Counted from the first letter of the stretch, positions 1 to 14,318 are shown. The stretch is 64,000 nucleotides of DNA from a bacterium (GCA_021824285.1 JAKAKZ010000001.1:4096-68095); one strand, 5' to 3'. Notes: generated from the letters alone by a model not told the origin. Numbers and translations are program-made.

Positions 1-36
1 CATTGAAGATAATTCCTAAGATTACGGCAAGCGTTT

Positions 37-2481
37 TCATTTGCATTCGATGACTTTCATCACCTCGTCGCCGTAGTGGTTGATGGCCTTTACCGCGATC
101 TTGCCGGTGGACGGTTTGGGGAATGGGCGCGAAACCGTCGAACACATGGAATCCCAAGCCTCCTCGGGAATCTCAGCCTTAAGCAGTTTCTTGAATTTAT
201 CGAACGGACAAATATCATTTAGGAAATAGGCGTGCGAGACGAAGAAGCTGCGGCCGTCGTAATTAGTGTCGATGAACCAAGCGGCAAGATCGTCATCGAC
301 CTTACCGGAACCGCTGGAGCGAATTTCGCTCTTCACGGGATCGTACACGTCAACGCCCTTGATCTCGACCACAATCTGCCCCTTCGTCTCCTCGACCCGA
401 ATATCCGGCTCGCCAAAAGCCATGAAGAGGTTACCGCTGCCGGTTTTCTTGAGCAGATCGCCCATTGTGAGGTCTGGATTGATTTTCACTTTCATTACGC
501 GCAACCCATCAATTTCGTTGGGTTCAGAAAGCGCAGCTGCTTCAAAGGAGGTCGCGGCAACAATTAAAAGATTCGCAAACTGCTTAGCCTTGGAAATGGC
601 GGCACGAACGAAGTCGTCGTCGACGCTGCCAAACTCGGGACCGATAGAGACGGCAGCAATCTTCAGCCCGACATCTGTACGAAATTCGCCGCGTGCCTGA
701 AGCTCCGGACCCCCTGGGAGAGTGTCTAGATTTTCGAACTGGATACGCGCCCCTTTGTCGCCGGTCTGCACTCCCGCAACGCGGAGATTGTCAACGATGT
801 TGGCGACATAGTCTTCCGTCGCAAGCATTTGTTGATCGTCACTCACACGATGTGGCGAGAGAGATTCGACCGTAAATGGCCCCGAAACGCGGACGCGATT
901 TTTATCCTCTATGGCTTGGTCGTAAAGAGACTCCTGCTCGGGCGGCTCGTCATTTGCGAGCGATTTCAAAGTCACGTGAGCGGCAGTCTTATACTCAAAG
1001 CCCGCCCGTACGTTATTTTCATCTTTAAGTTTGTAATACTGATACCTCGCACTCATGATACGAGTGCGTGCAAGCGCAAGAGCTACGCGCGATGTGTCCG
1101 TGGTAATCCAACGACGACCCCACTGTTCGGCGACAAAAGCAGTAGTCCCCGAACCACATGTGGGGTCCAGAACAAGATCTCCAAGGTCCGTAGTCATTAA
1201 AACACACCGCTCTATCGCAGAGGATGCCGTCTGAACTACATAAATTTTTCCCTCCGAACGATTTTGTATTCCACCAATATCGGTCCAAATATTTGAAATT
1301 GGAAAAATCGGAAAATCATCCATGAAACGCAAATACCTGAGACGATTGCCCTCAATCACGATGCGACCCTTCTCAGCAAGACGCTTCAGTCCGGCCACTG
1401 TTGTTTTCCAATGAGACCCGGCCGGCGGTTGGTAATCTTTGCCACCGAAGGTAAAAGTCTGATCGGTTGCAGAAGCCCCTTGTGCCGTCAAATCAGACGT
1501 GGTTGCAAGACGGTCCTCATCACCGGCTCGTGAGCTGACTGATCGGATGCTTGAGAGGGGCTTATACTTGGATGCGCCTTCATCTCCGGCGGATTTATCC
1601 TTATATAACTGACGATACTTCAGGTGCCTTATGTCCTTGGCATACCAGATAATATGATCCGCAATGGAAGATAAGGCGTTTCCTGAAAAACCGGTGGTTT
1701 TTGTAAAAACAATTTGCGAGACAAAATTTTCGCTCCCCATCACCTCGTCCATCAAGCACCGCACGAGGTGCACGTTTTCATCATTAATCTGAACAAAACA
1801 CGACCCGCTCTCAGTTAGGAGTTCGCGTGCGGCAATGAGACGGTCACGCAAATACGCCAAGTATGAATGGATTCCCAGCTCCCACGTATCTCGGAATGCC
1901 TTGACCTGTTCCGGCTGACGGACAAAATCCTCAACCCTGTTGTCCTTCACGTCACGCTTCTTCGTCGACACCTGCCAGTTGGAACCAAACTTGATTCCAT
2001 AAGGAGGGTCAATGTAGACGCACTGTACGCGCCCTCGCATCCCCTCCTTCTCAAGTAGCGAATTCATCACCACCAGAGAATCGCCAAGAATCATGCGATT
2101 CTGCCAGTTGTCCTCGTGCGTATAGAAATCAGCCATCTTCTTCGCCTGCTCTGCTGCCGTATCGCCAAACAACGTTGTCTGCAGTTCTGTCTGACCTTCG
2201 TCCTTGAGCCTGGCGATAATTGCTTCCGGAGAAATCTTCTCTTGGACGTAGATCGGCACCGTAGAAACACCGAACTCGCCACCGAGTTCGGCCTTGCCGG
2301 ACCAAGTAAGCTGAGGGTCCAGTGACGGATCATACTCGTAGGTTTTTTTGACCGGACGACGGTCGCGCGGCGAAATCATCTCCGACTCTTCCTGTGTCGG
2401 GATGCGCTTGCGTTTGTCCTCGTGCTTATAAGAAGTGACGGACGCGGCAGATATGGTTGGTGGTGCTTTTTTCCTGGCCAT
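37..2481 (-). CDS. mod: Type III restriction-modification Mod subunit (beta-class N6-adenine/N4-cytosine DNA methyltransferase)
   Basis: 814 aa; catalytic DPPY motif (VYIDPPYGIKFG) lies N-terminal to the AdoMet-binding motif (LDPTCGSGTT), separated by a long variable TRD-like region, which is the beta-class order typical of Type III Mod; stop/start 5 nt from upstream res; region visibly AT-richer than flanking core genes. Confidence 0.8.
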   Translation of the reverse strand: MARKKAPPTISAASVTSYKHEDKRKRIPTQEESEMISPRDRRPVKKTYEYDPSLDPQLTWSGKAELGGEFGVSTVPIYVQEKISPEAIIARLKDEGQTELQTTLFGDTAAEQAKKMADFYTHEDNWQNRMILGDSLVVMNSLLEKEGMRGRVQCVYIDPPYGIKFGSNWQVSTKKRDVKDNRVEDFVRQPEQVKAFRDTWELGIHSYLAYLRDRLIAARELLTESGSCFVQINDENVHLVRCLMDEVMGSENFVSQIVFTKTTGFSGNALSSIADHIIWYAKDIRHLKYRQLYKDKSAGDEGASKYKPLSSIRSVSSRAGDEDRLATTSDLTAQGASATDQTFTFGGKDYQPPAGSHWKTTVAGLKRLAEKGRIVIEGNRLRYLRFMDDFPIFPISNIWTDIGGIQNRSEGKIYVVQTASSAIERCVLMTTDLGDLVLDPTCGSGTTAFVAEQWGRRWITTDTSRVALALARTRIMSARYQYYKLKDENNVRAGFEYKTAAHVTLKSLANDEPPEQESLYDQAIEDKNRVRVSGPFTVESLSPHRVSDDQQMLATEDYVANIVDNLRVAGVQTGDKGARIQFENLDTLPGGPELQARGEFRTDVGLKIAAVSIGPEFGSVDDDFVRAAISKAKQFANLLIVAATSFEAAALSEPNEIDGLRVMKVKINPDLTMGDLLKKTGSGNLFMAFGEPDIRVEETKGQIVVEIKGVDVYDPVKSEIRSSGSGKVDDDLAAWFIDTNYDGRSFFVSHAYFLNDICPFDKFKKLLKAEIPEEAWDSMCSTVSRPFPKPSTGKIAVKAINHYGDEVMKVIECK

Positions 2482-2486
2482 ATTAC

Positions 2487-5447
2487 TTAATGGTTCTCAA
2501 AGCCGTTCTTAATGCCCGCACGGATCAATCCTTCGGTCTCGTGAATGTCCTGCACCTCAAGAAACGCCCACTTGCCGAACCCGCCATGGTTATTGACGGA
2601 TGGAACCCAAAGCTCACGAGCGGTCTTGGTCTTCAACGACTTCTTGTCATCCTTCTTTCCGGTCACCTCAATAAGCAGATTCAATGGCTCTTTCCCGCCC
2701 ACGTCGAGTCGCACGATGAAGTCCGGGATGTAGGCCCGCTCGATGCCCTTGTGCTCATACGGAATGGTGAACCCGAGGTTCTGGTTCTTCACGTAGGAAA
2801 TGACCTCCGGCATCATCTCAAGCTTCTTGGCGACCCCCTGCTCCCATTCTATGGTGTCCGCGACCACGTAATTCACATGGCTTTTGACGGTATCACTGAC
2901 TGGTTTCACCGTGAGGAAATCCACATGACGGGTCGATCCGACCTTATCGAACTGCGCCAGCACGGGCAGCACCTTCCGCTTGCCCTCCTGCGTAATGTTC
3001 TCCTGTACAATCGCTTGTTGGATCTTCGTGAGTGCACCGGCGTAGTATTCCCCAATCGTGAGGTAACCGATGACCATGCGGTCCTTTAGTTTGACCTGGG
3101 TTTTGACGTATTCCTCGACTATTTTCCTCAACTGAGGGAAAAGCCAATACTTGGAATCGCCCTCGGCGTCCGTGTAATACCTTCGAAGCAGCCCTTCTGT
3201 CAAACGCGTGACGACTTCGCCCTCGCGGCGCTCCTTGATTTTCTCAAGGCTCTCTACGACCTCCTCGCCGATGGCCCCTTCGCTGCGGACCTCGGTAGGC
3301 TCGTTCTCAATGACCGTCCGAGACTCTTCGGTGAACGTCGCTCCGAGCTTCTTCTCGTCAATCTCGTAACGGTATCCCTCGACGCGCGGGAAGGAAATCT
3401 CGTACTGCTCCCCCCGGTCGTCAAGGGAATGCACTCGATAGATGACCTTCGGTGGCTTCGGCTTGACGTCCCCGGTCGGGCGCAAGAAGCTGAACGGCAC
3501 CCCGTAGACTTCGGCGTATTCGGGCGAGAGCAGGCCGTTCTCCTCGACGTCATAGTCGACGCGCCGCAGGGCACGGCCGACCACCTGCTCGCAGAGCAGT
3601 TGCGTGGTGAAGGCCCGGATGCCCAGCACATGCGTGACGGTGTTCACGTCCCAACCCTCGGTGAGCATGGAGACGCTGACCACACACTTGATGTTCTCAC
3701 CGAGTTTGCCGGGCTTGCCGACGGTGTTCATGACCTCACGGAGGATTTCCTCGTTGCTCGGCTCGTCGCGACCTGCGTAACGGCGCATGTATTCCTTCTT
3801 AAAATCGTCGACCTCGGACGCGAAGATCCGGATGAACTCGTCATCGATCTTTTCGCCGCTCTCGAGCTGGGCGCTGTCGATGATGAGCGTGTTGGCCTTC
3901 TTGAGCATCTCGTGGCCGTCCTCATTGCGGAAAATGTCGAGGTTGCCCTTTTCGAGCCGGATCGCGCCGGTCGGCGTCTCGCGTTCATATCCGGCAATCC
4001 ACTTGTAGACCATCTCGGAAACAGTGGTGTTGTTGCAGACCACGATCATGACCGGCGGCATGACGGCGGGATTTTTCGTTTTCTCTTCGGCGTATCGGGC
4101 GTAATACTTTTCGTAGTTGCCGTAGAGCGAAAGGAGCGCCTCGTGGAGCTTGGTCGGGAGACTGATCTGCTCCTTGTCGAGGTTGTAACCGCCTGTTTTC
4201 TTGCCCTTTTTCGGGAGCTCGTCGCGCACGTGCAGCCAAAGATTCCTGAACTCCGGTTCATCCGTGATCGCGTCGGATTCGACCGGCAGACGCGGGATTT
4301 TGACGATCCCGCATTCGAGCGCGTCGAGGAGCGAAAAGTCGGAAACGACCCACGGGAACAGCTCGCCTTCCTGATAGCCGGAGCCGCTCAAGAAGTACGG
4401 CGTCGCCGACAGGTCGATGACGGCGTTGACGTCCATCTTTTCGGCAAGCGCCTTGACGCCGCTGATCCAGACCTTGGCATTCTTGTTGTTCTCGTCGGCC
4501 TCCTTCCTCTCCTCCACGGCCAGCTTCTCCTCAGTCGGCTTCTGCTGATAGCAGTGGTGCGCTTCATCATTGATTACTAGCACGCGCTTCTTGTTGAGCA
4601 GGCTCTTGAAGGCCCGATTCACCATCGCGCTCGGAGACTCCTTGGTCGCCTCTTCCTTCATCAATCCGGCGGCCTTGAGCGTCGCGCCAACCTGAAACCG
4701 CTGGAGCTGGAGACGTTCAAGCTTGTGAAAGTTGATGATCAGGACGTTCGCCTTCTGGAGCAGCTCGAAATCGTGATGCGACACGATGTCCCGCTTGCGG
4801 TAATAGTTTTCGGGACTGTTGGGCTGAAGGACGCTCAGGCGGTCGCGGATGGTGATGCCGGGAGCGATGATGGCGAAAGCGTCCGTGAAACGCGTATCCT
4901 GCGGATACTTGATCTTGTTGATGGTGTTGTAGGCGATGATCATCGCCATCACTACCGTCTTGCCGGAGCCGGTCGCCATCTTGAAGGCGAGGCGGTAAAG
5001 GCCTGGGTTGGCGTCGCCGTTGACCCGCCGCAAATCGTTCACCGCCCAAGCGTCGCCGTTCTTCTCGGCGACCTCGTTGATCCACATCAAGGTCTCAAGA
5101 GCCTCGACTTGGCAGAAGAAAAGCTTGTTCTCACGCGTATCGTCCTGCCAATAGGCAAGGAGGTCGCGGGAGGCTTTGGTCAGTCCGGGGTACCCCTTCT
5201 GCCGCCACGTGGCGATGCGGACGCGGATCTTGTTGACGAAGTCGTTCTCCTTCTGGAGCTCGGCACCGTATGCTCCTTCCGCCAAGTTCTGCTCGGCCTG
5301 TTTCTTGGCGGTCTTGGCCTTCGGAACTGGAATATAGAAGGCGCTCGGCCGCCGGCCCTCAACTGTCTGATCGGTAAGACCGCGCTCGTTAGAGCTGAAA
5401 TACCTATCCGGCACCTTATAAGGTGAGTTTAGGACTGGGCTTTCCAT
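2487..5447 (-). CDS. res: Type III restriction enzyme Res subunit (SF2 DEAH helicase with C-terminal PD-(D/E)xK-like nuclease)
   Basis: 986 aa; Walker A ATGSGKTVV, DEAH box VLVINDEAHH, SAT motif; C-terminal IPDFIV...LLIEVTGKKD resembles PD-ExK endonuclease motif; tightly coupled to mod. Confidence 0.8.
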   Translation of the reverse strand: MESPVLNSPYKVPDRYFSSNERGLTDQTVEGRRPSAFYIPVPKAKTAKKQAEQNLAEGAYGAELQKENDFVNKIRVRIATWRQKGYPGLTKASRDLLAYWQDDTRENKLFFCQVEALETLMWINEVAEKNGDAWAVNDLRRVNGDANPGLYRLAFKMATGSGKTVVMAMIIAYNTINKIKYPQDTRFTDAFAIIAPGITIRDRLSVLQPNSPENYYRKRDIVSHHDFELLQKANVLIINFHKLERLQLQRFQVGATLKAAGLMKEEATKESPSAMVNRAFKSLLNKKRVLVINDEAHHCYQQKPTEEKLAVEERKEADENNKNAKVWISGVKALAEKMDVNAVIDLSATPYFLSGSGYQEGELFPWVVSDFSLLDALECGIVKIPRLPVESDAITDEPEFRNLWLHVRDELPKKGKKTGGYNLDKEQISLPTKLHEALLSLYGNYEKYYARYAEEKTKNPAVMPPVMIVVCNNTTVSEMVYKWIAGYERETPTGAIRLEKGNLDIFRNEDGHEMLKKANTLIIDSAQLESGEKIDDEFIRIFASEVDDFKKEYMRRYAGRDEPSNEEILREVMNTVGKPGKLGENIKCVVSVSMLTEGWDVNTVTHVLGIRAFTTQLLCEQVVGRALRRVDYDVEENGLLSPEYAEVYGVPFSFLRPTGDVKPKPPKVIYRVHSLDDRGEQYEISFPRVEGYRYEIDEKKLGATFTEESRTVIENEPTEVRSEGAIGEEVVESLEKIKERREGEVVTRLTEGLLRRYYTDAEGDSKYWLFPQLRKIVEEYVKTQVKLKDRMVIGYLTIGEYYAGALTKIQQAIVQENITQEGKRKVLPVLAQFDKVGSTRHVDFLTVKPVSDTVKSHVNYVVADTIEWEQGVAKKLEMMPEVISYVKNQNLGFTIPYEHKGIERAYIPDFIVRLDVGGKEPLNLLIEVTGKKDDKKSLKTKTARELWVPSVNNHGGFGKWAFLEVQDIHETEGLIRAGIKNGFENH

Positions 5448-5524
5448 GGTGTTTGGCGTGGCGTGAATGGGACTCTAATCTGGATTATTTTATCACAGTT
5501 CCGTTACAATAATATAGTTCACCT

Positions 5525-6199
5525 ATGACAAGTTCCCCCGAGGCGAAAACTGCGGCTGTCCTCCAGCTCATAAACGACCGAATTGTCGTTACTGACAGCG
5601 AAAAAATCGCCGTGTTTGTCGGTGATTTTGTCGATGCCGGAGACAAGATCACGACTGGGGATGCAGCAGCCATCCTGAACCGCCTCCAAAAAAACGGTGC
5701 AATCCGCATACTGGAAATCGGCACTCGGTCCAATTCGGACGGCGGATACACCCTTGAGAATATGCTGCATAAGGGGTTGTTTACTTACCAAGGACCGAGC
5801 TACAACCTCGAGCGTGTCGACCGTAACCGCCTAAATGCCGATAACCTGATTACGTTCCGGGTAGAGCCGAACTTTTTGGAGATTTGCACCACTAGTGACA
5901 GTGCACGCAAGATAATTCTTGCCGGGCAAGGCGTTCGCGAGATGGAAGACCATCTCAAATCGAACCCGATGACGTGGTCCTGCCCAATCGACCGGTCCAA
6001 CGTGGCTCTTCTACTAAAACCGGAGGAATCCATCGCGACCTGGATGGACAAATTCGCTCGTGGCGAATATGGCCACTGCAAAGACCGTCGGCATCCGAAC
6101 CGTTTCTGGATTGAAGACGGCAAAATCCGCTTCGGCACCGTATCAATCCCGGTGACCGAAGCCCTGCCTGTGAAGAAAAAAATTGACGACCACGCATGA
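5525..6199 (+). CDS. hypothetical protein (no recognisable domain), orphan gene between R-M and phage packaging module
   Basis: 224 aa intact ORF preceded by AT-rich promoter-like region (TTACAATAATATAGTT); no motif recognised. Confidence 0.45.
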   Translation: MTSSPEAKTAAVLQLINDRIVVTDSEKIAVFVGDFVDAGDKITTGDAAAILNRLQKNGAIRILEIGTRSNSDGGYTLENMLHKGLFTYQGPSYNLERVDRNRLNADNLITFRVEPNFLEICTTSDSARKIILAGQGVREMEDHLKSNPMTWSCPIDRSNVALLLKPEESIATWMDKFARGEYGHCKDRRHPNRFWIEDGKIRFGTVSIPVTEALPVKKKIDDHA

Positions 6200-6443
6200 G
6201 ACCGTTATAATGTCTTTGAACATTGAAAGCTAACCTTCGATTCTGGCCGGACTTACCTGTATAGGTGAGCGGCCGCGAGTCGGGTTATCGCGCGTCATCG
6301 AACCAGCGGACCTGTGCGCCGCTGAACCGAGAGCCGAGATAACAGAGTATCGGGCGTTCTACGCCGCTGGTATTTTGTTATTTCGGCTTTTGTCGTTATA
6401 GCCAAGCCAGCCACCGAACATCCGGACTGGCTTTTTTGTCTTA

Positions 6444-7796
6444 ATGATTATGTCGATATTTATGAAACCACTCGAATGGCACAACGAAAAACGCAAGGCG
6501 CAGGACATTCTGCCTTGGCCTGGAAATCCTCGTAAACTCACGGACGAACAGGCGGAGCAGCTAAAGAAATCATTGGAAAAATTCAACTTGGTCGAGATTC
6601 CAGCCATCGACACCGATAACCGGCTGATTGCTGGTCACCAGAGGGTCAAAATCCTGCTGGCGTTGGGACGGGGCGGCGAGGAGATCGACGTGCGTGTGCC
6701 GAACCGGAAACTCACCAAGGAAGAGTTCGAGGAATACAACGTGCGCAGCAACCTGACAACCGGGGAATGGGACTTCGACGCGCTTGGCGAACTCGATGAG
6801 ACTTTCCTGTCCGATGTCGGATTTAGCTCCGAAGAGTTGGACCGGATTTTCGGCGAGGACGAAACGCCTGATGTCTTCGACCTTCAGAAGGAACTGAAAA
6901 AACTGGACATCAAGGAGGTCGAGATCAAGAAGGGCGATGTGTGGGCGCTCGGCGAGAGCCAAATGATGTGCGGCGACTCGACTGTCGAGGCGGATTTCCA
7001 GAAGCTCATGGGCGGCGAAAAGGCCGACATGTGTTTAACCGACCCGCCGTACATCCTGGACTACCTGCACGGGAAGACCCGGCATGGCAAGGCGACGGAG
7101 GGGTTCGGATACAAGCGCGACCGCCGGTACCTCGAGACGGAGTCCCTGCCGGACAACTTCACCGAGCTCTGGATGAGCAACGTCGCGGCGGCGGCGAAGC
7201 CGGACTTCTCCATCATCGTGTACGAGAACTGGAAGAACATCCGGACAATCTGGGGCGAGATGGAGAAGCGCTGGAAGGTGAAGAACATGATCGTCTGGCA
7301 CCTAGAGAACCGGCATCAGGGCTTCTCATCCAAGTACCGCTTCTTCAACAAGCACGACATCGCGATGGTGGGAGCGTCTGGCGACGTGCCGTACAACCAC
7401 GACGCGGAGGAGGCTCCGCTCCAGGAGGAGTACGAGACGGCCCTCTACGCCATAAGCGGCAAGCCGAACTGGGAGAAGTACGAGAAGGGCAAGAAAAACT
7501 GCCCGACCGACTTCATCGAGTTCCGCGCCTCCGACGCGAAGCATTCCGGCCAAGGCGTCGTCTTCGGGACGAAGCCGACCGAGATCCTGGTCCCCTACGT
7601 CAAGGTCCTCACGAGGCGCGGCGACCTGATCGTCGAGCCGTTCGGCGGCAGCGGAAGCACCCTGATGGCCGCGACCAAGATGAAGCGGCGCTGCTTCCTG
7701 ATGGAGAAGAGCCCGGTGTACGCCGAGGTCATCCGGAAACGCTGGGAGAAGCTCACCGGCCTCAAGGCCGAACGCGTCGCCTATGCCGGCCGATAA
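6444..7796 (+). CDS. ParB-like nuclease domain / DNA methyltransferase fusion (phage-type DNA MTase)
   Basis: N-terminal ParB/Srx motif (IPAIDTDNRLIAGHQRVKIL); C-terminal MTase motifs TDPPYILDY and VEPFGGSGST; likely true start at MKPLEWH (about 6462); overlaps terminase small subunit gene. Confidence 0.8.
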   Translation: MIMSIFMKPLEWHNEKRKAQDILPWPGNPRKLTDEQAEQLKKSLEKFNLVEIPAIDTDNRLIAGHQRVKILLALGRGGEEIDVRVPNRKLTKEEFEEYNVRSNLTTGEWDFDALGELDETFLSDVGFSSEELDRIFGEDETPDVFDLQKELKKLDIKEVEIKKGDVWALGESQMMCGDSTVEADFQKLMGGEKADMCLTDPPYILDYLHGKTRHGKATEGFGYKRDRRYLETESLPDNFTELWMSNVAAAAKPDFSIIVYENWKNIRTIWGEMEKRWKVKNMIVWHLENRHQGFSSKYRFFNKHDIAMVGASGDVPYNHDAEEAPLQEEYETALYAISGKPNWEKYEKGKKNCPTDFIEFRASDAKHSGQGVVFGTKPTEILVPYVKVLTRRGDLIVEPFGGSGSTLMAATKMKRRCFLMEKSPVYAEVIRKRWEKLTGLKAERVAYAGR

Positions 7797-8259
7797 GCGC
7801 GGCGTCGTCGAGATCCGCCAGGACAAGCAGAAGGAGGTGCTGGTCGAGGAGCTGCGGAAGCGACCGATCGTCCAGAGCGCCTGCCAGAAGGTCGGCATCG
7901 GCCGGGCCTCGTACTACCGCTGGCGCAAGGAGGACCCCGGCTTCGCGGCGGCGGTCGACGAGGCGGTCGAGTCCGGAGTCGGCCTCGTGAACGACGTGGC
8001 GGAGACCCAGCTCATGACGGCCATCCGCGAAGGGAACATGACCGCCGTCGTCTTCTGGCTGAAGCACCACCACCGCTCGTACGCGACGCGAGTCGAGCTG
8101 TCGATGCCGGAAAAGCGGCCGGAGCTCGACCTCACGCCCGAACAGGCCGAACTGATCAGGAAGTCCGTCGCGATGCTCTCGACCGAGCCGGACTCCCCTG
8201 CCCCCGCCTCGGCCGCAGACGCCACGCAAGCGCCGACACCTAAGCCCGTAACCAAATGA
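7783..8259 (+). CDS. phage terminase small subunit (HTH DNA-binding)
   Basis: 158 aa, HTH-like segment IGRASYYRWRKEDPGF; sits immediately upstream of large terminase in canonical order; Pro/Ala-rich tail. Confidence 0.6.
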   Translation: MPADKRGVVEIRQDKQKEVLVEELRKRPIVQSACQKVGIGRASYYRWRKEDPGFAAAVDEAVESGVGLVNDVAETQLMTAIREGNMTAVVFWLKHHHRSYATRVELSMPEKRPELDLTPEQAELIRKSVAMLSTEPDSPAPASAADATQAPTPKPVTK

Positions 8260-8263
8260 ACAC

Positions 8264-9754
8264 ATGGAAAACAAAAGACCCGAATCGTTCGACGAAACGA
8301 TCGCCAGGCTCAAGACGGACCGCGACTTCCGCATCCGGCTCACGGCATTCAGCCATCAATGGTTCTTCATGACCTACTTCCGGGACCACGTCACCTATCC
8401 GCTCGCCGACCTCCACCGCGAGATCTTCCGGATGACGCAGGACCCTCCCACGCCGCTCATCACGGTCGTCGCCTTCCGCTCGTCTGGGAAGTCGACGGTG
8501 CTCTCCCTCTCCTACCCCATCTGGGCGGCGCTGTCCGGACGGAAGAAGTTCATCCTCATCGTGAGCAAGACGGAATCCCAGGTGAAGCAGATAATGTACA
8601 ACATCAAGGCGGAGCTCGAGGGGAACCAGCAGCTGATATCGGACTTCGGGCCGTTCAACACGGGCGACGTCTGGAACGAGCTGTCCCTCGTCCTGCCGCA
8701 GCACGCCGTCCGCATCGTCGGCGTCTCCGCCGAGCATTCCCTGCGCGGCCTCAAGCACCGCTCGCACCGGCCCGACCTCGTCATCATCGACGACGTGGAG
8801 GACATGGAGTCGGTGCGATCCGGCGAGGTCCGCGACAAGCGCTACCGATGGCTGAAGTCGGAGGTCATCCCGGCGGGCGGCGAGTCCTGCCAAATCTGGG
8901 TCGTGGGGAACCTCCTCCACGAGGACTCGCTCGTCTCGCGGCTCCGGAGCGAGATCGAGAACAGGGAGATCGTGGGCACGTACCGGGAGTACCCGATCGT
9001 CGTCGGCGGGGTGCCGACGTGGCCGGGCCGGTTCCCGAGCGCCGCGGCGGTCGAGGAGCTGCGCATGAAGATCGGCGACGACAGGGCGTTCAAGCGGGAA
9101 TACCTCCTGCAGATCACGCCGGAGGCGGACCAGGTGGTCGACCAGAGCTGGCTCCGCTACTACGACAAGCTGCCGGACGCGGACGGGAAACGCCCGGGAG
9201 ACGGGTGGGAGCTCGACTTCGTCGCGACCGGCGTCGACCCGGCCATCTCGCTGAGGGAATCGGCCGACTTCACCGCCATGGTGTCGGCGGCCGTCTACAG
9301 CCGGATCAGGAGGGACAACCTGGGCAACCACTTCTACACCGACCACCACATCTATATCCTGCCGGTCGTCACGAACGCGCACCTGTCGGTAAACGGCATC
9401 ATCGAGAGGGCGAAAGTCACGGCGCAGATCTGCGCGCGGCCGGGCCACACGCACCGGTTCTTCGTCGAGGACGTCGCCTTCCAGAAGGCGCTGATCGACA
9501 CGATGCACGGCGCGAACCTGTACGTAAAAGGAGTGAAGACCGACGGGATGGACAAGCGGTCGCGCCTGATGATTGCCGCGCGCGGGATGGAGACCGGCAA
9601 GGTGTTCTTCCCGCGCACCGGGGCGGAGGAAGTCATCCGGCAGATCGTCGGATTCGGCGCGGAACGGCACGACGACCTCGCCGACGCCTTCTCGACCCTC
9701 GTCCGGCAGGCGGACTATACCGCCACCCACCACCCGAACATATACGTCTTCTGA
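8264..9754 (+). CDS. phage terminase large subunit (ATPase + nuclease)
   Basis: 496 aa; Walker A VVAFRSSGKSTVLS, Walker B-like DLVIIDDVEDME, C-terminal acidic RNaseH-like nuclease region. Confidence 0.8.
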   Translation: MENKRPESFDETIARLKTDRDFRIRLTAFSHQWFFMTYFRDHVTYPLADLHREIFRMTQDPPTPLITVVAFRSSGKSTVLSLSYPIWAALSGRKKFILIVSKTESQVKQIMYNIKAELEGNQQLISDFGPFNTGDVWNELSLVLPQHAVRIVGVSAEHSLRGLKHRSHRPDLVIIDDVEDMESVRSGEVRDKRYRWLKSEVIPAGGESCQIWVVGNLLHEDSLVSRLRSEIENREIVGTYREYPIVVGGVPTWPGRFPSAAAVEELRMKIGDDRAFKREYLLQITPEADQVVDQSWLRYYDKLPDADGKRPGDGWELDFVATGVDPAISLRESADFTAMVSAAVYSRIRRDNLGNHFYTDHHIYILPVVTNAHLSVNGIIERAKVTAQICARPGHTHRFFVEDVAFQKALIDTMHGANLYVKGVKTDGMDKRSRLMIAARGMETGKVFFPRTGAEEVIRQIVGFGAERHDDLADAFSTLVRQADYTATHHPNIYVF

Positions 9755-9847
9755 AGGGCTTAAAGGGCGGCCTGGACTGTTCCGGTCGGTGGCGACATTG
9801 ATGTCCTGCATGCCCCGATAAGGGGCTGTAAGGGCAAATTCAAGGCT

Positions 9848-11131
9848 ATGGACCCATCCACCACCGTGCCGGTCCGGTACTGCCTGTACGCTCGGAAATC
9901 TAGCGAACAGGACGAGCGGCAGGCGCTGTCGATCGACGCGCAGATCCAAGAGATAACCGAACTCGCAGTGAGGGAGAAGCTCGAGATCGTCGCCGTCCGC
10001 AAGGAGAGCCATTCCGCGAAGGACTCCGGCGAGCGACCGGAATACAACGGACTCATCACGGACATCCGCACCGGTATCATTAATGGCATCCTCACGTGGG
10101 CGCCTGACCGCCTCAGCCGTAACGGCGGCGACCTAGGATCGCTGGTCGACCTCATGGACCAAGGAAAGCTCGCGGAGATCCGGACACCGAGCCAGCGGTT
10201 CACGAATTCGCCGAACGAGAAGTTCCTGCTCATGATCCTCTGCTCGCAGGCGAAGCTCGAAAACGACAGCAAGGGCGTGAACGTGCGTCGCGGCCTCAAG
10301 GTGAAGGCGCAGATGGGCTGGCGACCGAACATGTCACCTATGGGGTACATCAACACCAAGACAGGCATCAAGGGCGAACAGAAGGTCATCCTAGACCCGA
10401 AGCGCGCGCCGCTCATCAGAGAAATGTTCGAACGTGTGGCGAACCTCGGCCACAGCGGACGGAAGATCAAGGAATGGCTGGACCAGTCCGGCTTTACGAC
10501 GCGCGGCGGCAAGCCAGTGACGCTCAGCAGCATCTTCCTGATGCTCCGAAACCCATACTACTGCGGCAAGTTCGAGTTCCCGAAGGGCGGCGGCAACTGG
10601 TACCGCGTGGCGCACGAGTCGATCGTGACCGAGGGGCTTTTCGAGGACGTCCAGCGGCAACTCTCGCTAGAGAAGAAAAAGACGCCGTGGGGCTCGAAGG
10701 AGTTCGCCTTCACGCGGCTCATGAAGTGCGGGTCGTGCGGCTCCGGCATCACCGCGCAGGAGAAGTTCAAGTCGATGGACGACGGTACGCGCAAGCGCTA
10801 CGTCTACTACCACTGCGGACGGTCGACCGACAAGGAGTGCGGGGAGCCGTATATCCGCGAAGAAGCACTCATCGAACAGCTTATCGCCGTCCTCGACGAC
10901 CTGAAGATTGACCATGCGGTCTCTAAGAAGAAGTTCCAGGAGGAATTCGACCGGAACCGGAAATTTATGGAGTCGATGATGGGGACCCAAGCCATGCCGG
11001 AAGCGCCACGCCTGGACCATAAGAAGTACGTCCGCCACGTCCTGACCAACGGAACGAAAGAAGAGAAGCGCGAGCTTCTCTCTTGCGTAACGTCCGAGCT
11101 TCGCCTCTCCAACAAGGCCATCAGGATCTAG
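9848..11131 (+). CDS. large serine recombinase (resolvase/invertase N-domain + recombinase domain + zinc ribbon)
   Basis: 427 aa; N-terminal YARKSSEQD...LSIDAQ catalytic Ser region, recombinase domain, Cys cluster CGSCGSG...YYHCGRS. Confidence 0.85.
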   Translation: MDPSTTVPVRYCLYARKSSEQDERQALSIDAQIQEITELAVREKLEIVAVRKESHSAKDSGERPEYNGLITDIRTGIINGILTWAPDRLSRNGGDLGSLVDLMDQGKLAEIRTPSQRFTNSPNEKFLLMILCSQAKLENDSKGVNVRRGLKVKAQMGWRPNMSPMGYINTKTGIKGEQKVILDPKRAPLIREMFERVANLGHSGRKIKEWLDQSGFTTRGGKPVTLSSIFLMLRNPYYCGKFEFPKGGGNWYRVAHESIVTEGLFEDVQRQLSLEKKKTPWGSKEFAFTRLMKCGSCGSGITAQEKFKSMDDGTRKRYVYYHCGRSTDKECGEPYIREEALIEQLIAVLDDLKIDHAVSKKKFQEEFDRNRKFMESMMGTQAMPEAPRLDHKKYVRHVLTNGTKEEKRELLSCVTSELRLSNKAIRI

Positions 11132-11685
11132 GTATCCGGCGCAGGCGGGCTGTTATCGACACGATACCTTCCTTCGCCTTCGGCAATGCCTTTTTTTGCC
11201 TTTTGATAAGCGAACCATGGAACCTGGGGACAGCTCTTGTTCAGCTGTTCTTTTTGCTGCGAGAAGTACTTCAGTTTTTCCGTAAGGACTTCCTCGGAGC
11301 TCTCACGCCAGCAGTCAATGGTTCGAAAAATCCGAACCCTGTTCTGGAGGGCGTCATACTCGTTGCCGGCGTTGAGGTGGGCGTTGGCCCGTTCGTTCGG
11401 GTTCAGGAAAGTCATCACCGCCGTGAAGGCCGCGATTGCGATGGCAAAGATCCCACCAACGGCCTTCAGGTTGTCGGACGTGGTCTGCGACGACGCACTT
11501 ACAATCGAGGACATGATAACTGTCGGCACACCGATCCAAAGATGAAACCGCAACCAAAAATGTGCGGCGGCGAAATGCCCCTTGGATGTGTAAAGGGTCG
11601 CCTCCTCAATCCGCTGCGCTTCCTTGATGATCTCCTCTTTGGTGTGACTTACTGGTTGTTCGGCCGTCGTGAGCTGGTCAGCCAT
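11128..11685 (-). CDS. SLATT-like two-transmembrane effector (putative membrane-disrupting CBASS effector)
   Basis: 185 aa from Met at 11685 (M-A-D-Q...), giving an 8-nt ATGGCTGA overlap with the upstream NTase stop; two predicted TM helices (FWLRFHLWIGVPTVIMSSIV; AVGGIFAIAIAAFTAVMTFL) flanked by helical cytoplasmic segments; AT-richer than core. Confidence 0.5.
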   Translation of the reverse strand: MADQLTTAEQPVSHTKEEIIKEAQRIEEATLYTSKGHFAAAHFWLRFHLWIGVPTVIMSSIVSASSQTTSDNLKAVGGIFAIAIAAFTAVMTFLNPNERANAHLNAGNEYDALQNRVRIFRTIDCWRESSEEVLTEKLKYFSQQKEQLNKSCPQVPWFAYQKAKKGIAEGEGRYRVDNSPPAPDT

Positions 11686-12559
11686 ATGCGGGAAAGTAGT
11701 CTCCAAATATCTTTTGCCAGAACTCCATCGCCTCCTGCGTGCGCCCCCGAGCCTCAAGCTCCTCCGCCTTCAATGCCCGCGTATAAGCCGTCTCGAACTT
11801 ACTCATGGCCTCCATGATCTTCTCGGCGGTGTTGATGTACCGTCCTACGTCACCGCCGTATCCGGCTGGATCCAGATTTTGCTTACTGATCAGCTCCTTG
11901 CCCTTCCCGAAGAAATACCTTACGCCCGACGGAAAATCAGAGATGGTGATGCCTTCAAGAATCTGAAGGGCCAACACCTCGAGGTGGAACGACATGAAAT
12001 GGCGCCCGATGTTCTTATTCCACGCCTTGATCATTTTGATAAGCGGGATCAAATCTCCGTTGTGCGCCACGTTCGAGGCACTCACCAAATCGACATGTTT
12101 CTTGGGATCGGTGGAAATCCAATTCTGGCTTACCGAATCCGGAATTAGGAAACCGCCTCCTTGACGATAAAAACCCGGCACAACGTCGACCACGAAGTCC
12201 GTGAAGGCAACGGTGACAGCCTGCCCGTTCCGACTGATGTCCGGGGTCTTGGTGTAGGTCCGACGCAAGGCCCGCTTCACAAGATCAAGGAGTCCCGCCT
12301 GACCACCGTTTTGCCCATTGTAGTTGTGGTAGTACTTGGCACTGAGGACGACGAAAATATCCACATCAGACTCTTTGAGGGGTCCAATCATGGTGCTCCT
12401 GGAGTACGAGCCGGTCAGAAAGGTGTCCAAAACCTCGAGCTCCGCCTCGACGACCTCGCGGACATTCTTCTGCCGCGTGGCCACCGTTGCCTTCTGGAGC
12501 CCGGTAATCTCGAGATTTTCTTTGAATTTTTGGAACGCGGACTGAATCGTGGTTGCCAT
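11678..12559 (-). CDS. SMODS/CD-NTase-like nucleotidyltransferase (cGAS/DncV-like second-messenger synthase)
   Basis: 293 aa; Pol-beta NTase signature G-S...[DE]hD (LTGSYSRSTMIG...ESDVDIFVV) plus third acidic residue in FTDFVVDVVPGF; size and C-terminal helical domain typical of CD-NTases. Confidence 0.65.
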   Translation of the reverse strand: MATTIQSAFQKFKENLEITGLQKATVATRQKNVREVVEAELEVLDTFLTGSYSRSTMIGPLKESDVDIFVVLSAKYYHNYNGQNGGQAGLLDLVKRALRRTYTKTPDISRNGQAVTVAFTDFVVDVVPGFYRQGGGFLIPDSVSQNWISTDPKKHVDLVSASNVAHNGDLIPLIKMIKAWNKNIGRHFMSFHLEVLALQILEGITISDFPSGVRYFFGKGKELISKQNLDPAGYGGDVGRYINTAEKIMEAMSKFETAYTRALKAEELEARGRTQEAMEFWQKIFGDYFPAYG

Positions 12560-12602
12560 ATTTCCGGCATACCTTACAACTCTGTGGCCGTACGCGCAAT
12601 AC

Positions 12603-12633
12603 GAAACCGCGCGGCCAAAAGCCGCGCGGTTTC
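12603..12633 (-). terminator. GC-rich hairpin (GAAACCGCGCGGCC-aaaa-GCCGCGCGGTTTC), likely terminator after tRNA-Asn
   Basis: perfect 13-bp stem followed by U-rich tract on minus strand; separates tRNA from the NTase gene. Confidence 0.45.
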
Positions 12634-12716
12634 TTCCTTCCTGCCAAGGCTCTCCGGTCCAAGCGAACCACGTCCTACGTGGTCACCTGGTACGGTCTGC
12701 CTGAACTAGAAAGTTG

Positions 12717-12791
12717 TGGCTCCGAGGCTGGGATTCGAACCCAGAACCAATGGATTAACAGTCCACTGCTCTACCGTTGAGCTACCTCGGA
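12717..12791 (-). tRNA. tRNA-Asn (anticodon GUU)
   Basis: Minus-strand cloverleaf: acceptor UCCGAGG/CCUCGGA, T-arm CUGGG-AUUCGAA-CCCAG, anticodon stem GUGGA/UCCAU with loop CUGUUAA (GUU), encoded CCA. Confidence 0.85.
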
Positions 12792-12986: not shown

Positions 12987-14318
12987 ATGGCACCAAACCA
13001 CACCTCTATGCCGACCCACGACCAAAAAACGGCCCGGATCGTCCAGGAACTGCGCGCGCGGCGGAGCACCGCGCCGCTTTCGCTCAAGAAGAGGGCCGTA
13101 TCGCACGAGGTCCCCAAACCGGACGACAAGCGGCACCAGGATGAGAAACTCGACATCAGCGACCTCAATGAGATCCTGGAAATCGACCCGGTGGCGCGCA
13201 CCTGCGTCGCCGAACCGGGCGTGACCTTCGTCGACCTGGTCGCGGCCACGCTGCGGCACGGCCTCGTGCCCTACGTCGTACCGGAGCTCAAGACCATCAC
13301 CATCGGCGGTGCCGTCGCCGGCTGTTCAATCGAGTCGATGTCGTACAAGATCGGCGGCTTCCACGACAACTGCCTCGAGTACGAGGTGATCACGGCGCAG
13401 GGCGACATCCTCCTCTGCACGCCCGACAACGAGAACCGCCTGATCTTCCAGATGGTCCACGGGACTTTCGGCACGCTTGGCATCATCGCGCGGCTGAAAT
13501 TTCGGCTCTGCCCGGCCAAGCCTTACGTTCACGTCACCTATGAGAAGTACGGCGACCTGGAGGCCTACAAGGCGGCCATCTGGCGCCATTACCAGGCCCG
13601 CGACGTGGATTTCATGGACGGCATCATCCATTCGCCGCAGGAACTGGTATTGAGCGTGGCCAACTTCTGCGACCGCGCGCCGTACGCGCACCGCTACGAC
13701 TGGATGCGGGTCTATTACTTGAGTACCAAAACGCGCGAGGAGGATTACCTGCGCACCGCGGATTATTTCTTCCGCTACGACAAGGGCGTGACCAATGTCA
13801 CGCCGCGCTCCTTTTTCGGCCGTCTTTTCTTCGGCAAGCTGCTGGACTCCGACGCCATCCTGCGCCTGGTCACCAGGTTCCGCCGCTTCATCCCGGCCAA
13901 GATGATCCCGGTCACGGTGGACACCTTCATCCCCTTCTCCCGCGTCACGCCGTTCCTGGACTGGTACCGGCGCGAGGTGGGCTTCTTCCCGCTCTGGTGC
14001 GTACCCTACAAGCCGTCGCACCGCTACGAATGGATCGACGACGCCTACCTCAAGGGCGCCGACGACGAGCTGTTCCTGGACCTGGCCATCTACGGGCTGC
14101 CGAAGAATCCCGACAAGGACTACTACCGGCTCCTGGAGGACGAGCTCACAGCCGTCGGTGCCATCAAGACGCTTATCTCGACGAATTACTATTCCGAAGC
14201 CGATTTCTGGAAGATCTGGAACCGGAAGAACTATGAGTCGGTCAAGCGGCGGACCGACCCGGACAACCTCTTCCGCGACCTCTACTCGAAGATGTGCCGC
14301 GCGGCCCGAGGCTTGTGA
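12987..14318 (+). CDS. FAD-binding (PCMH-type) oxidoreductase
   Basis: 443 aa; FAD_binding_4-like region (GGAVAGCSIESMSYKIGGFHDNCLEYEVITAQGDIL...HGTFGTLGIIARLKFRL). Confidence 0.7.
   Translation: MAPNHTSMPTHDQKTARIVQELRARRSTAPLSLKKRAVSHEVPKPDDKRHQDEKLDISDLNEILEIDPVARTCVAEPGVTFVDLVAATLRHGLVPYVVPELKTITIGGAVAGCSIESMSYKIGGFHDNCLEYEVITAQGDILLCTPDNENRLIFQMVHGTFGTLGIIARLKFRLCPAKPYVHVTYEKYGDLEAYKAAIWRHYQARDVDFMDGIIHSPQELVLSVANFCDRAPYAHRYDWMRVYYLSTKTREEDYLRTADYFFRYDKGVTNVTPRSFFGRLFFGKLLDSDAILRLVTRFRRFIPAKMIPVTVDTFIPFSRVTPFLDWYRREVGFFPLWCVPYKPSHRYEWIDDAYLKGADDELFLDLAIYGLPKNPDKDYYRLLEDELTAVGAIKTLISTNYYSEADFWKIWNRKNYESVKRRTDPDNLFRDLYSKMCRAARGL

Follow-up and report, generated by a model that had tools for sequence, protein, structure and literature searches.

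The window analysed here is a stretch of 64,000 nucleotides of bacterial DNA, and the segment of interest occupies its left end up to an intact tRNA-Asn(GTT) gene at positions 12717..12791 (minus strand, 3' end towards the segment; ARAGORN; Rfam tRNA, 74.9 bits). All the genes named in a preliminary description of this segment were found at their places by gene calls and profile matches, and the segment is, as described there, accessory, mobile, defence-related and tRNA-linked.

The leftmost genes form a restriction-modification (R-M) pair on the minus strand. Mod, a Type III-like R-M methyltransferase of 814 aa (37..2481), matches PADLOC MTase_III (PDLC03632, 4e-208) and Pfam N6_N4_Mtase (5.5e-28) and is 77% identical in amino acids to the Mod found at the same position in the related locus L173. 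Upstream of it lies the restriction subunit Res (986 aa, 2487..5447), which is 86% identical to the Res of L173 and scores 1106 bits with NCBIfam NF046055 (BPTD_3080-family restriction endonuclease; cut-off 800). Within Res, a Pfam ResIII domain spans residues 131-351, the C-terminus (880-947) has a weak match to a TnsA-like nuclease, and the PADLOC REase_III matches are weak (1e-6). A methyltransferase of the Type III kind is thus adjacent to a helicase-nuclease, as in Type III R-M systems, with a 5-nt gap and a res-mod gene order that is the reverse of the usual one.

Protein X, the orphan gene of the preliminary description (ORF224, 224 aa, 5525..6199, plus strand), had no family match in Pfam, PADLOC, PHROG and NCBIfam profile searches, and only five clusters of it were found among 5.8 billion proteins. 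In the two clusters for which the context was read (L173 and L178) it occupies the same position, and it co-varies with the type of left cargo. Its AF2 model is poor (pLDDT 59) and the Foldseek matches are non-significant, the top ones being mostly winged-helix regulators or Rep initiators; the protein may bind DNA through a winged helix. A contig of the same population (L002) extends the window by 1737 nt leftwards and adds an 81-aa gene, a second N6/N4 methyltransferase (396 aa) and one further gene. Since this contig continues leftwards, the left boundary lies beyond the window, as had been proposed. Look-ups with Mod, Res and ORF224 aimed at a leftward extension returned only short contigs, and the left arms of the relatives L177 and L178 contain no boundary within them.

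To the right of protein X are four genes on the plus strand, of which the first three overlap or almost abut. The first (6444..7796; gene callers put the start at 6462) encodes a ParB-domain N6/N4 DNA methyltransferase supported by Pfam N6_N4_Mtase (6e-22) and phrog_498 (3e-71), with the ParB-like N-terminus resting on phrog_620 (5e-21); it shows 77-86% identity in L173, L086 and L172 and a dN/dS of about 0.09. The second gene, with a 14-nt overlap, encodes the terminase small subunit TerS (158 aa, 7783..8259; PHROG terminase small subunit, 7e-8; PF13022, 32 bits, above cut-off), which is 50-73% identical in relatives. The third encodes a full-length terminase large subunit, TerL (496 aa, 8264..9754; phrog_38, 1.4e-67), whose Walker A (SGKST) and Walker B (DDVED) motifs do not vary across 11 homologs. 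TerL is the fastest-evolving core gene, with 55-62% identity in relatives and a dN/dS of 0.35-0.39, and its protein sequence evolves three to four times faster than its neighbours. Cultured-phage TerL proteins are at most 26% identical to it; a PDB profile search and an IMG/VR scan with TerL alone gave no match, and a metagenome scan with TerL alone returned only the L086 contig again. The open reading frames of the packaging genes are intact with dN/dS below 1, and these genes look functional.

The fourth gene (9848..11131) encodes a large serine recombinase of 427 aa, the presumed integrase. The Resolvase (PF00239), Recombinase (PF07508) and Zn_ribbon_recom (PF13408) domains are all above cut-off, so that the catalytic serine, Recombinase domain and zinc ribbon of integrase-type large serine recombinases are all present; phrog_95 (integrase) matches at 1e-68. 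The catalytic YARKSS...Q motif is kept in all relatives, and identity is 50-85% in close relatives and 43-56% in 67 IMG/VR loci.

Three non-coding features accompany these genes. A sigma-70-like promoter candidate before the core operon (6183..6211, plus strand; TTGACG-17-TATAAT, 11/12 matches) is a consensus match only, the total promoter count of the region being not above chance. It is followed by a conserved, highly structured leader with two terminator-like hairpins ahead of the methyltransferase start (6229..6440, plus strand), which has a fold z-score of -6.9 and no Rfam match. Nucleotide identity in the leader is about 90% among the window, L173 and L178, which exceeds that of the flanking genes, and four compensatory pairs were observed. 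The third feature is a hairpin inside the 3' end of the recombinase gene (11061..11082, no strand assigned), where core homology ends and right cargo begins: in four relatives GAGAAGCG.GAG does not vary and the hairpin hardly does, and past it the four diverge completely. This hairpin was scored as a terminator-like site for minus-strand cargo, and the C-terminal 20 or so residues of the recombinase vary with the cargo.

Between the recombinase and the tRNA lies a two-gene CBASS on the minus strand. The SLATT_4 two-transmembrane effector (11128..11685; NCBIfam SLATT_4, 7e-37; PADLOC 2TM effector, 2e-63) overlaps the recombinase stop codon by 4 nt at its 3' end and the cyclase gene by 8 nt. The cyclase is a CD-NTase of 293 aa (11678..12559; NF041117 CBASS_cyclase_b, 221 bits, cut-off 200; PADLOC cyclase, 1.8e-104; Pfam SMODS, 2e-24). 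Cap2/Cap3 and HORMA/TRIP13 ancillary genes are absent beside the pair, its only other neighbours being the recombinase and the tRNA, and a cyclase with an adjacent effector and no ancillary genes corresponds to a minimal Type I CBASS.

A 16-nt motif, TACGGTCTGCCTGAAC (12691..12706, plus strand), was found 10 nt from the tRNA 3' end, and it is a candidate for both the recombinase half-site and the right end of the element. It occurs once in the window at zero mismatch and recurs at the same offset of 10 nt beside tRNA-Asn in L173 and beside tRNA-Gln in L086, where it forms an imperfect palindrome. Looser GGTCT-type motifs adjoin other tRNAs in IMG/VR relatives. In all 21 informative loci (first tRNA after the recombinase, opposite strand) the recombinase end faces the tRNA 3' end, with seven tRNA species represented, and the L172 and L173 contigs terminate within the homologous tRNA-Asn. 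We consider it highly probable that the recombinase inserts the element at the tRNA 3' end. Serine recombinases are not usually linked to tRNA genes, which counts against the single-element reading proposed below. A search for a direct repeat of the tRNA-Asn 3' end, as suggested in the preliminary description, gave none from -1736 to 12716 of the window (the far boundary lying beyond). L177, searched over 22 kb, and 17 IMG/VR relatives, compared by exact words of 14 nt or more, showed none either. Such an absence is expected for a serine recombinase. The FAD_binding_4 gene to the right of the tRNA is scattered over phyla in unrelated contexts when one genome per species is considered; the source species is not among these, and no empty site was obtained by way of this gene.

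The compositional contrast that had been reported, between low-GC R-M and CBASS genes and a terminase block of normal GC, was confirmed by computing GC, GC3 and tetranucleotide composition. Against a background of 14.5-64 kb (GC 0.623 +/- 0.017 in 2.5-kb windows), GC is 0.51 in Mod (z -6.4), 0.57 in Res and 0.56 in the recombinase 3' end with the CBASS (z -3.5), and 0.65 in TerS-TerL (z +1.5). The GC3 values are 0.57 for Mod, 0.61 for ORF224, 0.67 for the SLATT gene and 0.70 for the CD-NTase; those of the four core genes are 0.83-0.93 and those of host genes 0.75-0.88. On the left side of the tRNA the tetranucleotide distance is raised throughout (z 1.8-7.8), even in the terminase block with its normal GC (z 3.3-3.8), and it is back at background directly to the right of the tRNA (FAD-Rce1, z -0.2). 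The composition boundary coincides exactly with the tRNA.

The same methyltransferase-TerS-TerL-recombinase order (positions ~6,47x-11,08x of the window) was observed in six independent metagenome places (L086, L087, L171, L172, L173/L177 and L178), where TerL is 55-62% and the recombinase 50-85% identical; the methyltransferase is 77-86% identical, but only 30% in L087, and is missing from L171. Scanning IMG/VR with the recombinase as anchor gave 67 loci, and 39 of the 62 in which a recombinase ORF was called contain the methyltransferase, TerS, TerL and recombinase in that order. All relatives come from metagenomes or predicted proviruses. The family core is about 4.6 kb long and syntenic, with its genes on one strand, and its GC tracks that of the hosts from 0.32 to 0.66. 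Around it are up to three cargo bays, located left of the methyltransferase, in the TerL-recombinase gap and in the recombinase-tRNA gap, with contents that are mostly anti-phage defence. In the window copy the left bay holds the Type III-like R-M system, protein X and further genes past the window, and the right bay holds the CBASS. The cargo of other loci includes ThsB (Thoeris-like) in L173, Gabija (GajA, 8e-190; GajB, 4e-170) with Type IIG and HKD-Snf2 in L172, a Type III-like system in L171 and a Type I R-M system in L094.

Genes for a virion were not found in this family. Among 118 random neighbouring ORFs, R-M, helicase, reverse-transcriptase and AAA families dominate, and no virion family appears among the 25 leading ones in Pfam or PHROGs. 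In Pfam and PHROG searches the window gave no portal, capsid or tail gene, and the portal, capsid, tail and lysis genes of an intact prophage are not present. L087 is a complete element of about 10 kb lying between host-like genes, without virion genes. Pfam, PADLOC, PHROG and NCBIfam searches identified no replication gene, repressor or excision factor in the window, where the replication module of satellites is not represented by any primase, helicase or Rep family; an S24 repressor is confined to L087-type members and an HTH_17 Xis-like gene to the left arm of L177. None of 34 complete IMG/VR contigs showed terminal repeats or was circular, and neither a helper phage nor an excised circle or encapsidated copy was observed. 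The ends of L211 are 93% alike over 438 nt, an ambiguous observation. A duplication in L095 was considered as evidence of an excised form and rejected as probably an assembly artefact.

We hold with confidence that these loci belong to one modular element family with cargo bays. For the window itself we propose, with a probability of roughly 55%, that positions 1 to ~12,716 are the right-hand part of a single phage-satellite-like integrative mobile element, with a visible length of at least 14.4 kb when the window is joined to the 1.7 kb from L002. As in satellites, genes of its own for diverting packaging are present as intact TerS and TerL, and a complete virion set is lacking in the part seen, the left end of the element lying beyond the window. 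The serine recombinase would insert and excise the element at the tRNA-Asn 3' end, the TerS/TerL pair would recognise the element's own DNA and load it into the procapsids of a helper phage, as satellites do, and the methyltransferase would protect the transferred DNA. The transfer in helper-phage capsids, read here from gene content, stands at about an even chance, and we infer that a self-packaging satellite-like element using such capsids is the likeliest mechanism. Comparison of the relatives shows that cargo cassettes are exchanged by recombination in flanks that are conserved: the start of the methyltransferase gene, the hairpin near the end of the recombinase gene and the terminal segment beside the tRNA. 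This exchange gives rise to the GC mosaic, which is best read as cassette turnover within a single element.

The alternative that survives best is that the core is a fossil, a prophage lineage repeatedly reduced to a methyltransferase/terminase/integrase stump whose terminase no longer acts in transfer, and which persists only through the mobility of the recombinase or linkage to useful defence genes. The dN/dS of TerL, the highest among the core genes, fits this, as do the lack of replication or regulatory genes in the window and the loss of TerL, which is missing in about nine relatives and is absent or replaced by other genes in, for example, L187, L188, L190, L204, L225 and L234; the fast evolution and the losses could reflect relaxed constraint instead of adaptation to helpers. 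On the other hand, at least 39 loci retain full-length TerS and TerL with invariant ATPase motifs and no frameshifts in those read, and independent decay would not halt at the same four genes across such diverse hosts. In addition, the TerL slot of L201 and L207 holds a non-orthologous TerL (phrog_2), and a different family in the same slot argues for selection on function. We regard the fossil as unlikely.

Also unlikely is a terminase module that acts as a defence or interference device, for instance by competing with or mis-cutting infecting phage DNA at packaging, in an element that moves by other routes, such as its recombinase combined with transformation, conjugative helpers, or lateral transduction. 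Defence systems always surround the module, and the fast evolution of TerL suits an arms race. Satellites are also known to disturb helper packaging through TerS-type proteins (10.1101/2024.04.22.590561). However, PADLOC gives TerS and TerL no defence-model match except a chance-level one for TerS (DrmC, E 0.006), interference and self-packaging are not mutually exclusive in known satellites, and the linkage with an integrase and a methyltransferase of its own fits transfer better.

The preliminary description had taken the mosaic to suggest two or more acquisition layers at one tRNA-linked hotspot. In its full form this reading includes a phage packaging remnant and means that an R-M island, a CBASS cassette and a decayed prophage stump together with its integrase, none of them related to the others, arrived successively and independently at a tRNA-Asn hotspot. 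The GC and GC3 mosaic, with low-GC R-M and CBASS beside the GC-normal terminase block, is real and speaks for it, and the Mod methyltransferase is itself highly mobile, with more than 8000 relatives across phyla. This view is nevertheless largely refuted, and we give it little credence. The terminase block is the conserved backbone of one family, with the same cargo positions in dozens of loci in hosts of differing GC, and the R-M and CBASS genes sit in positions which hold other defence systems in relatives. The cargo ends 0-40 nt from the recombinase stop codon in the window, L173, L172 and L178. Because the terminal motif lies between the CBASS and the tRNA, and likewise at a different tRNA in L086, the CBASS is cargo inside the element and not a separate insertion. 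Lastly, it is very improbable that the segment is the end of a complete temperate phage with structural genes further left: the left end has not been reached and a methyltransferase-TerS-TerL module is typical of phage genomes, but a true phage relative (L096) has portal and MuF directly after TerL where the integrase follows here, L087, about 10 kb long, has host-like genes on either side, the 10-kb left arms of L177 and L178 contain only defence-type and unknown genes without virion genes, and the census of neighbouring ORFs is without virion families.

The satellite-like element resembles several known systems and differs from each. P4 has a tyrosine integrase, a primase and capsid-size factors, and it uses a helper terminase that acts on a cos site. 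The window element departs from this in its serine recombinase, in encoding both TerS and TerL as well as a methyltransferase, and in its cargo bays, of which there are up to three. Like P4-like satellites, it would need a helper for virion proteins. It is also comparable to P4-like satellites and P2 prophages (10.1101/2021.01.21.427644) in being small and integrative, with a backbone that is conserved and a set place at which diverse defence systems are swapped. SatelliteFinder models four satellite families (P4-like, PICI, cfPICI and PLE), and terL is core only in cfPICI (PMC10085698). The window element shares terL with the cfPICIs. These also have genes for the capsid, for head-tail adaptors and connectors, for a transcriptional regulator and for a primase-replicase (PMC10085698), all of which are absent from the window and the examined relatives; the part of the element seen does not fit the cfPICI definition.

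PICIs and SaPIs are chromosomal islands whose own TerS redirects packaging and which often carry defence genes, all of which recalls the window element, and PICIs contain a primase-replicase module (PMC10085698). The window element differs from them in that its recombinase is of the serine type, TerL is present and no replication module can be recognised. PICIs have a tyrosine integrase and AlpA/Stl-type regulation and are without TerL; profile searches of the window gave no tyrosine integrase and no AlpA or pri-rep match. PICMIs, which are known satellites, are also without a replication module.

No PLE-type genes are present in the window element, and to our knowledge PLE is not tRNA-linked. 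PLE of Vibrio cholerae and module-3 VEIMEs are, in the accessible sections of PMC9618062, satellites that integrate by a serine recombinase as here. According to the same sections, some VEIMEs carry TerS and R-M genes, and VEIMEs encode terminase small-subunit homologs, the large subunit being attributed to the helper phage (PMC9618062). Tycheposons are likewise tRNA-linked integrative elements with modular cargo, 27 of 937 of them rely on a large serine recombinase, and terS or a capsid gene is found in the PICI-like forms (10.1101/2020.12.28.424599). They differ in having primase and helicase replication modules and mainly tyrosine recombinases; their PICI-like forms are without extra cargo, and a TerL and methyltransferase core is not described for them. 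Phage-derived packaging genes and an integrase beside a tRNA also recall a defective prophage, unlike which the four-gene set is intact over dozens of loci with a wide host range, the recombinase is of the serine and not the tyrosine type, and no tRNA-end direct repeat was found. A classical tRNA-linked island is similarly not indicated, there being no tyrosine recombinase and no tRNA-end repeat in the window, which does not extend to the far boundary of the element.

A full-text literature search found no description of a methyltransferase-TerS-TerL-serine recombinase element; its coverage is incomplete and an earlier description is possible. The family thus appears to be widespread and undescribed. 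More tentatively, the window element may be a member of a new and widespread class of phage satellites that have both terminase subunits and a DNA methyltransferase without capsid genes ("terminase-only" hijackers), with tRNA-3'-end serine recombinases, and that form a major defence shuttle in hosts of GC 0.32-0.66. If so, this would be a new form of phage parasitism, in which the DNA-packaging motor would come complete with the element and the shell alone would be taken from the phage. The genes shuttled at fixed positions are those of R-M, CBASS, Thoeris-like and Gabija systems, reverse transcriptases and unknown genes. In P2/P4 elements, new defence systems have already been found from conserved flanks around variable content, and the three cargo bays would offer a ready place to seek unknown defence genes. 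The recombinases would form a new set of tRNA-directed integrases acting at many different tRNA genes; a recombinase clade constantly placed against the tRNA 3' end is uncommon among such enzymes and of interest for genome engineering. In annotation, it would be wrong to score such segments as prophage remnants with separate islands beside them, or to score them as viruses, as which IMG/VR lists them, probably only because of their terminase genes.

The segment to the left of the tRNA-Asn gene contains the Mod (37-2481) and Res (2487-5447) genes of a Type III R-M system, both on the minus strand, the orphan 224-aa ORF224 (5525-6199) which has no family match, a methyltransferase with a ParB-like N-terminus (MT; 6444-7796), TerS (7783-8259), TerL (8264-9754), a large serine recombinase (LSR; 9848-11131) and a CBASS pair on the minus strand, namely a SLATT 2TM effector (11128-11685) and a CD-NTase (11678-12559), followed by tRNA-Asn(GTT) (12717-12791, minus strand). 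With 1106 bits, Res falls into the BPTD_3080 family of restriction endonucleases (NCBIfam), and the CD-NTase scores above the CBASS_cyclase_b cut-off. All the genes listed in the preliminary description were recovered at these positions, and its proposal that the region reaches past window position 1 was confirmed by L002, a contig from the same population that shows accessory genes leftwards. A two-TM-like small gene of 81 aa and a second N6/N4 methyltransferase of 396 aa, the latter not related to Mod, were observed at L002 283-1777 (window -1454 to +40), and L002 also carries a further gene.

Only ten clusters of nearest TerL homologs (53-72% identity) were found among 5.8 billion proteins searched. 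All six clusters for which the TerL context was read keep one gene order, in which MT (missing only in L171), TerS and TerL are followed by no more than a few small genes and then by LSR, and none of the six has a portal gene after TerL. Identity to the window is 77-86% for MT (30% in L087, with MT missing only in L171), 50-85% for LSR, 50-73% for TerS and 55-62% for TerL. The flanking cargo differs from member to member. On their left side L173 and L177 share the Type III R-M system of the window, and their right side holds a ThsB TIR protein accompanied by an unknown partner. In L172 the left cargo consists of a Type IIG enzyme and an HKD-Snf2 helicase and the right cargo is Gabija; L086 shares this left pair and has small ORFs on its right. 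A Type III-like pair lies on the right in L171, while L087 has HEPN, TIR and S24 repressor genes on the left and, with a length of about 10 kb, lies between host-like genes. Next to ThsB, the right cargo bay of L173 encodes a 211-aa protein (13392-14027) that no PADLOC model matches and that is a candidate for the unknown partner in a Thoeris-like system.

The central block is a conserved backbone. Between the window and members whose cargo differs, homology at the DNA level begins about 30 nt inside the MT gene and runs up to a conserved hairpin, which lies about 50-70 nt ahead of the LSR stop codon, and the right cargo gene ends 0-40 nt from this codon. ORF224 has only five relatives anywhere, and it occupies the same position in both contexts read (L173 and L178); it accompanies the Type III left arm and is replaced by an unrelated protein where the left arm is Type IIG.

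The right end of the element can be located with reference to the tRNA. The first tRNA downstream of LSR lies on the opposite strand in 17 of 17 informative IMG/VR relatives, or 21 of 21 when the window, L086, L172 and L173 are included, and the contigs L172 and L173 break within a tRNA-Asn homologous to that of the window. The tRNA species in the IMG/VR relatives are Ser, Asn, Gln, Glu, Asp, Trp and Arg, and in some cases no more than 120-200 nt separate LSR from the tRNA, in others the gap holds cargo. The tRNA link is a family trait that fixes the right end. A 16-nt motif, TACGGTCTRYCKGAAC, was found exactly 10 nt off the tRNA 3' end (window 12691-12706) and at the same offset in L173, with one mismatch, and beside the tRNA-Gln of L086. 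In L086 the motif is half of an imperfect palindrome, as a serine-recombinase site would give. No further copies were found in the 64-kb window at the same stringency. Since the motif keeps a fixed offset beside both tRNA-Asn and tRNA-Gln, it belongs to the element, whose right end would lie at, or a few bases from, the tRNA 3' end; the CBASS pair is for the same reason placed inside the element as cargo. The direct repeat of the tRNA end that had been proposed as a check was not found anywhere searched (window -1736 to 12716, 22 kb of L177 and, with exact words of 14 nt or more, 17 IMG/VR relatives). A serine recombinase requires only a 2-bp crossover, and the missing repeat is therefore in keeping with this enzyme. 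Short T-arm-like pseudo-tRNA fragments (GGATTCGAAC-type) were observed inside the element near the intact tRNA in several relatives (L086 about 16600-16620; L172 about 16830-16860; L186, L196 and L222 within 60-130 nt of the tRNA), with none seen in the window. Such fragments could have been left behind by earlier insertions or could belong to the attachment site.

When IMG/VR was scanned with the aligned family recombinases, 67 loci with 43-56% identity were recovered. An LSR ORF was called in 62 of them, and BLAST comparison with the proteins of the family served to label their ORFs. The MT-TerS-TerL...LSR arrangement was found in 39 loci, MT and/or TerS with LSR but no recognisable TerL in 11, and no core genes upstream of LSR in 12. 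Among the 11 loci without a recognisable TerL, the slot is taken in two by a TerL from another PHROG family (phrog_2; L201 1780-3060 and L207 8535-9860) and in one by a Sie-like superinfection-exclusion gene (L187 4697-5248), and it is empty in L204. In several members the stretch from TerL to LSR holds R-M or Type IIG genes as cargo and so constitutes a third cargo bay. Core-gene GC follows the neighbouring DNA, from 0.32 (L211) through 0.47-0.50 (L172) to 0.60-0.66 (window), so that the family lives in very different hosts. Many of its members are already present in IMG/VR as unnamed 'viral' contigs, and four of the ids (2626541890, 2830725366, 2778261306 and 2785511067) seem to belong to genome records, not metagenome ones.

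TerS and TerL are both full length, and Walker A and Walker B of TerL, plus many other positions, are invariant in 11 homologs. Against L173 and L086, dN/dS was about 0.09-0.10 for MT, 0.14-0.19 for LSR, 0.18-0.44 for TerS and 0.35-0.39 for TerL, these being rough figures as synonymous sites are close to saturation. TerL is therefore under constraint, yet it changes fastest among the core genes. Its divergence might alternatively reflect relaxed constraint, and the core as a whole might be a functionless fossil stump. Because TerL is constrained while changing fast and is replaced by an unrelated TerL in some members, we read the pattern as probable selection for a working terminase that fits different helper phages.

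Comparison of metagenomic contigs, on which this wholly computational study is based, points firmly to a family with a four-gene backbone, defence-filled cargo bays, a tRNA-facing LSR end with a conserved terminal motif and no virion genes. We infer that LSR would insert the element at the 3' end of the tRNA and excise it again, that its own TerS and TerL would load its DNA into capsids from a helper phage, that MT would protect this DNA on arrival and that homologous recombination in the conserved flanks would swap the cargo. Satellite traits missing here are a helper phage, a module for replication, a regulator in this copy and direct evidence that the element is excised or encapsidated (none of 34 complete IMG/VR contigs has terminal repeats). 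As an alternative, the terminase module may serve defence and not transfer; among 118 random neighbouring ORFs, the top Pfam families are ResIII, N6_Mtase, Helicase_C, Eco57I, Methylase_S, HsdM_N, SWI2_SNF2, DUF2779 and reverse transcriptase.

The contrast in composition noted in the preliminary description was borne out, and the improbable rival reading built on it is that the pieces were stacked independently. GC is 0.51-0.57 in the R-M genes, 0.54-0.56 in CBASS and 0.65 in TerS-TerL against a background of 0.623 +/- 0.017. GC3 reaches 0.83-0.93 in the four central genes; for most of the cargo it is 0.57-0.70, and for Res 0.79. Tetranucleotide usage is deviant across the entire segment, the GC-normal block included, and returns to background level exactly at the tRNA. 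In a single modular element, exchange of cargo in the conserved flanks would give such a GC mosaic. The adjacent Mod and Res genes (37-5447) differ in GC3 (0.57 and 0.79) and in identity to L173 (77% and 86%), which suggests a recent exchange within the Mod methyltransferase, for example in its specificity region. Directly right of the tRNA, a FAD_binding_4 gene (12987-14318) is host-like in GC and tetranucleotide usage. Its relatives (62-79% identical) occur in MAGs labelled Gammaproteobacteria, Firmicutes, CPR bacteria and DPANN archaea, with no adjoining tRNA-Asn in the ten checked for tRNAs; the gene may have been widely transferred, or contamination may affect some of the MAG bins.

That a complete prophage continues to the left is the weakest alternative, as portal, capsid and tail families are absent from the top 25 of both Pfam and PHROGs in the 118-ORF census, while in L096, a genuine phage relative with a 38% identical TerL, portal and MuF immediately follow TerL.

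Taken together, the present family would work like a satellite with defence hotspots. By their membership tests it falls outside every named satellite family. In cfPICI, terL is a core gene, the only such case among the four satellite families modelled by SatelliteFinder, but it is accompanied by capsid and connector genes (PMC10085698), whereas the present family has no virion genes. PICI/SaPI have TerS only, in contrast to TerS plus TerL here. PLE, some VEIMEs and EPIPs share serine integrases but have other gene sets (PMC9618062, PMC12822802). Tycheposons are likewise tRNA-linked and modular, although they carry mainly tyrosine recombinases and replication genes, and their PICI-like forms lack cargo (10.1101/2020.12.28.424599). 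P2/P4 elements offer the model of fixed-position defence hotspots (10.1101/2021.01.21.427644). The full-text literature searched, of incomplete coverage, gave no description of the MT-TerS-TerL-LSR architecture.

Between ORF224 and MT lies a candidate sigma-70-like promoter close to consensus (6183-6211). Behind it comes a non-coding leader of 210 nt (6229-6440) with about 90% nucleotide identity in three members, higher than that of the flanking genes. The leader matches no Rfam family, folds much more stably than shuffled sequence (z -6.9) and holds two terminator-like sites (hairpin plus U-run) ahead of the MT start. As leads for further work, it could be controlled by antitermination, one way to sense the late gene expression of a helper, or it could be an origin or packaging site.

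Six IMG/VR contigs carry two family LSR genes, a few to about 40 kb apart (L188/L190, L191/L205, L194/L200, L206/L241, L214/L240 and L244/L245), with two full elements in at least three of them. The contig ends of the low-GC locus L211 (1-438 and 11958-12396) are alike, with 93% identity over 438 nt; two elements in tandem could explain this, as could a circular form whose assembly drew on a mixed population. Finally, an exact 1972-bp duplication spanning methyltransferase-TerS-TerL was found in L095 (1-1972 and 9118-11089), where one of the two TerL copies is cut short and runs into PfkB, ribonucleotide reductase and NUDIX genes; a chimeric assembly or a partial duplication is the probable cause.
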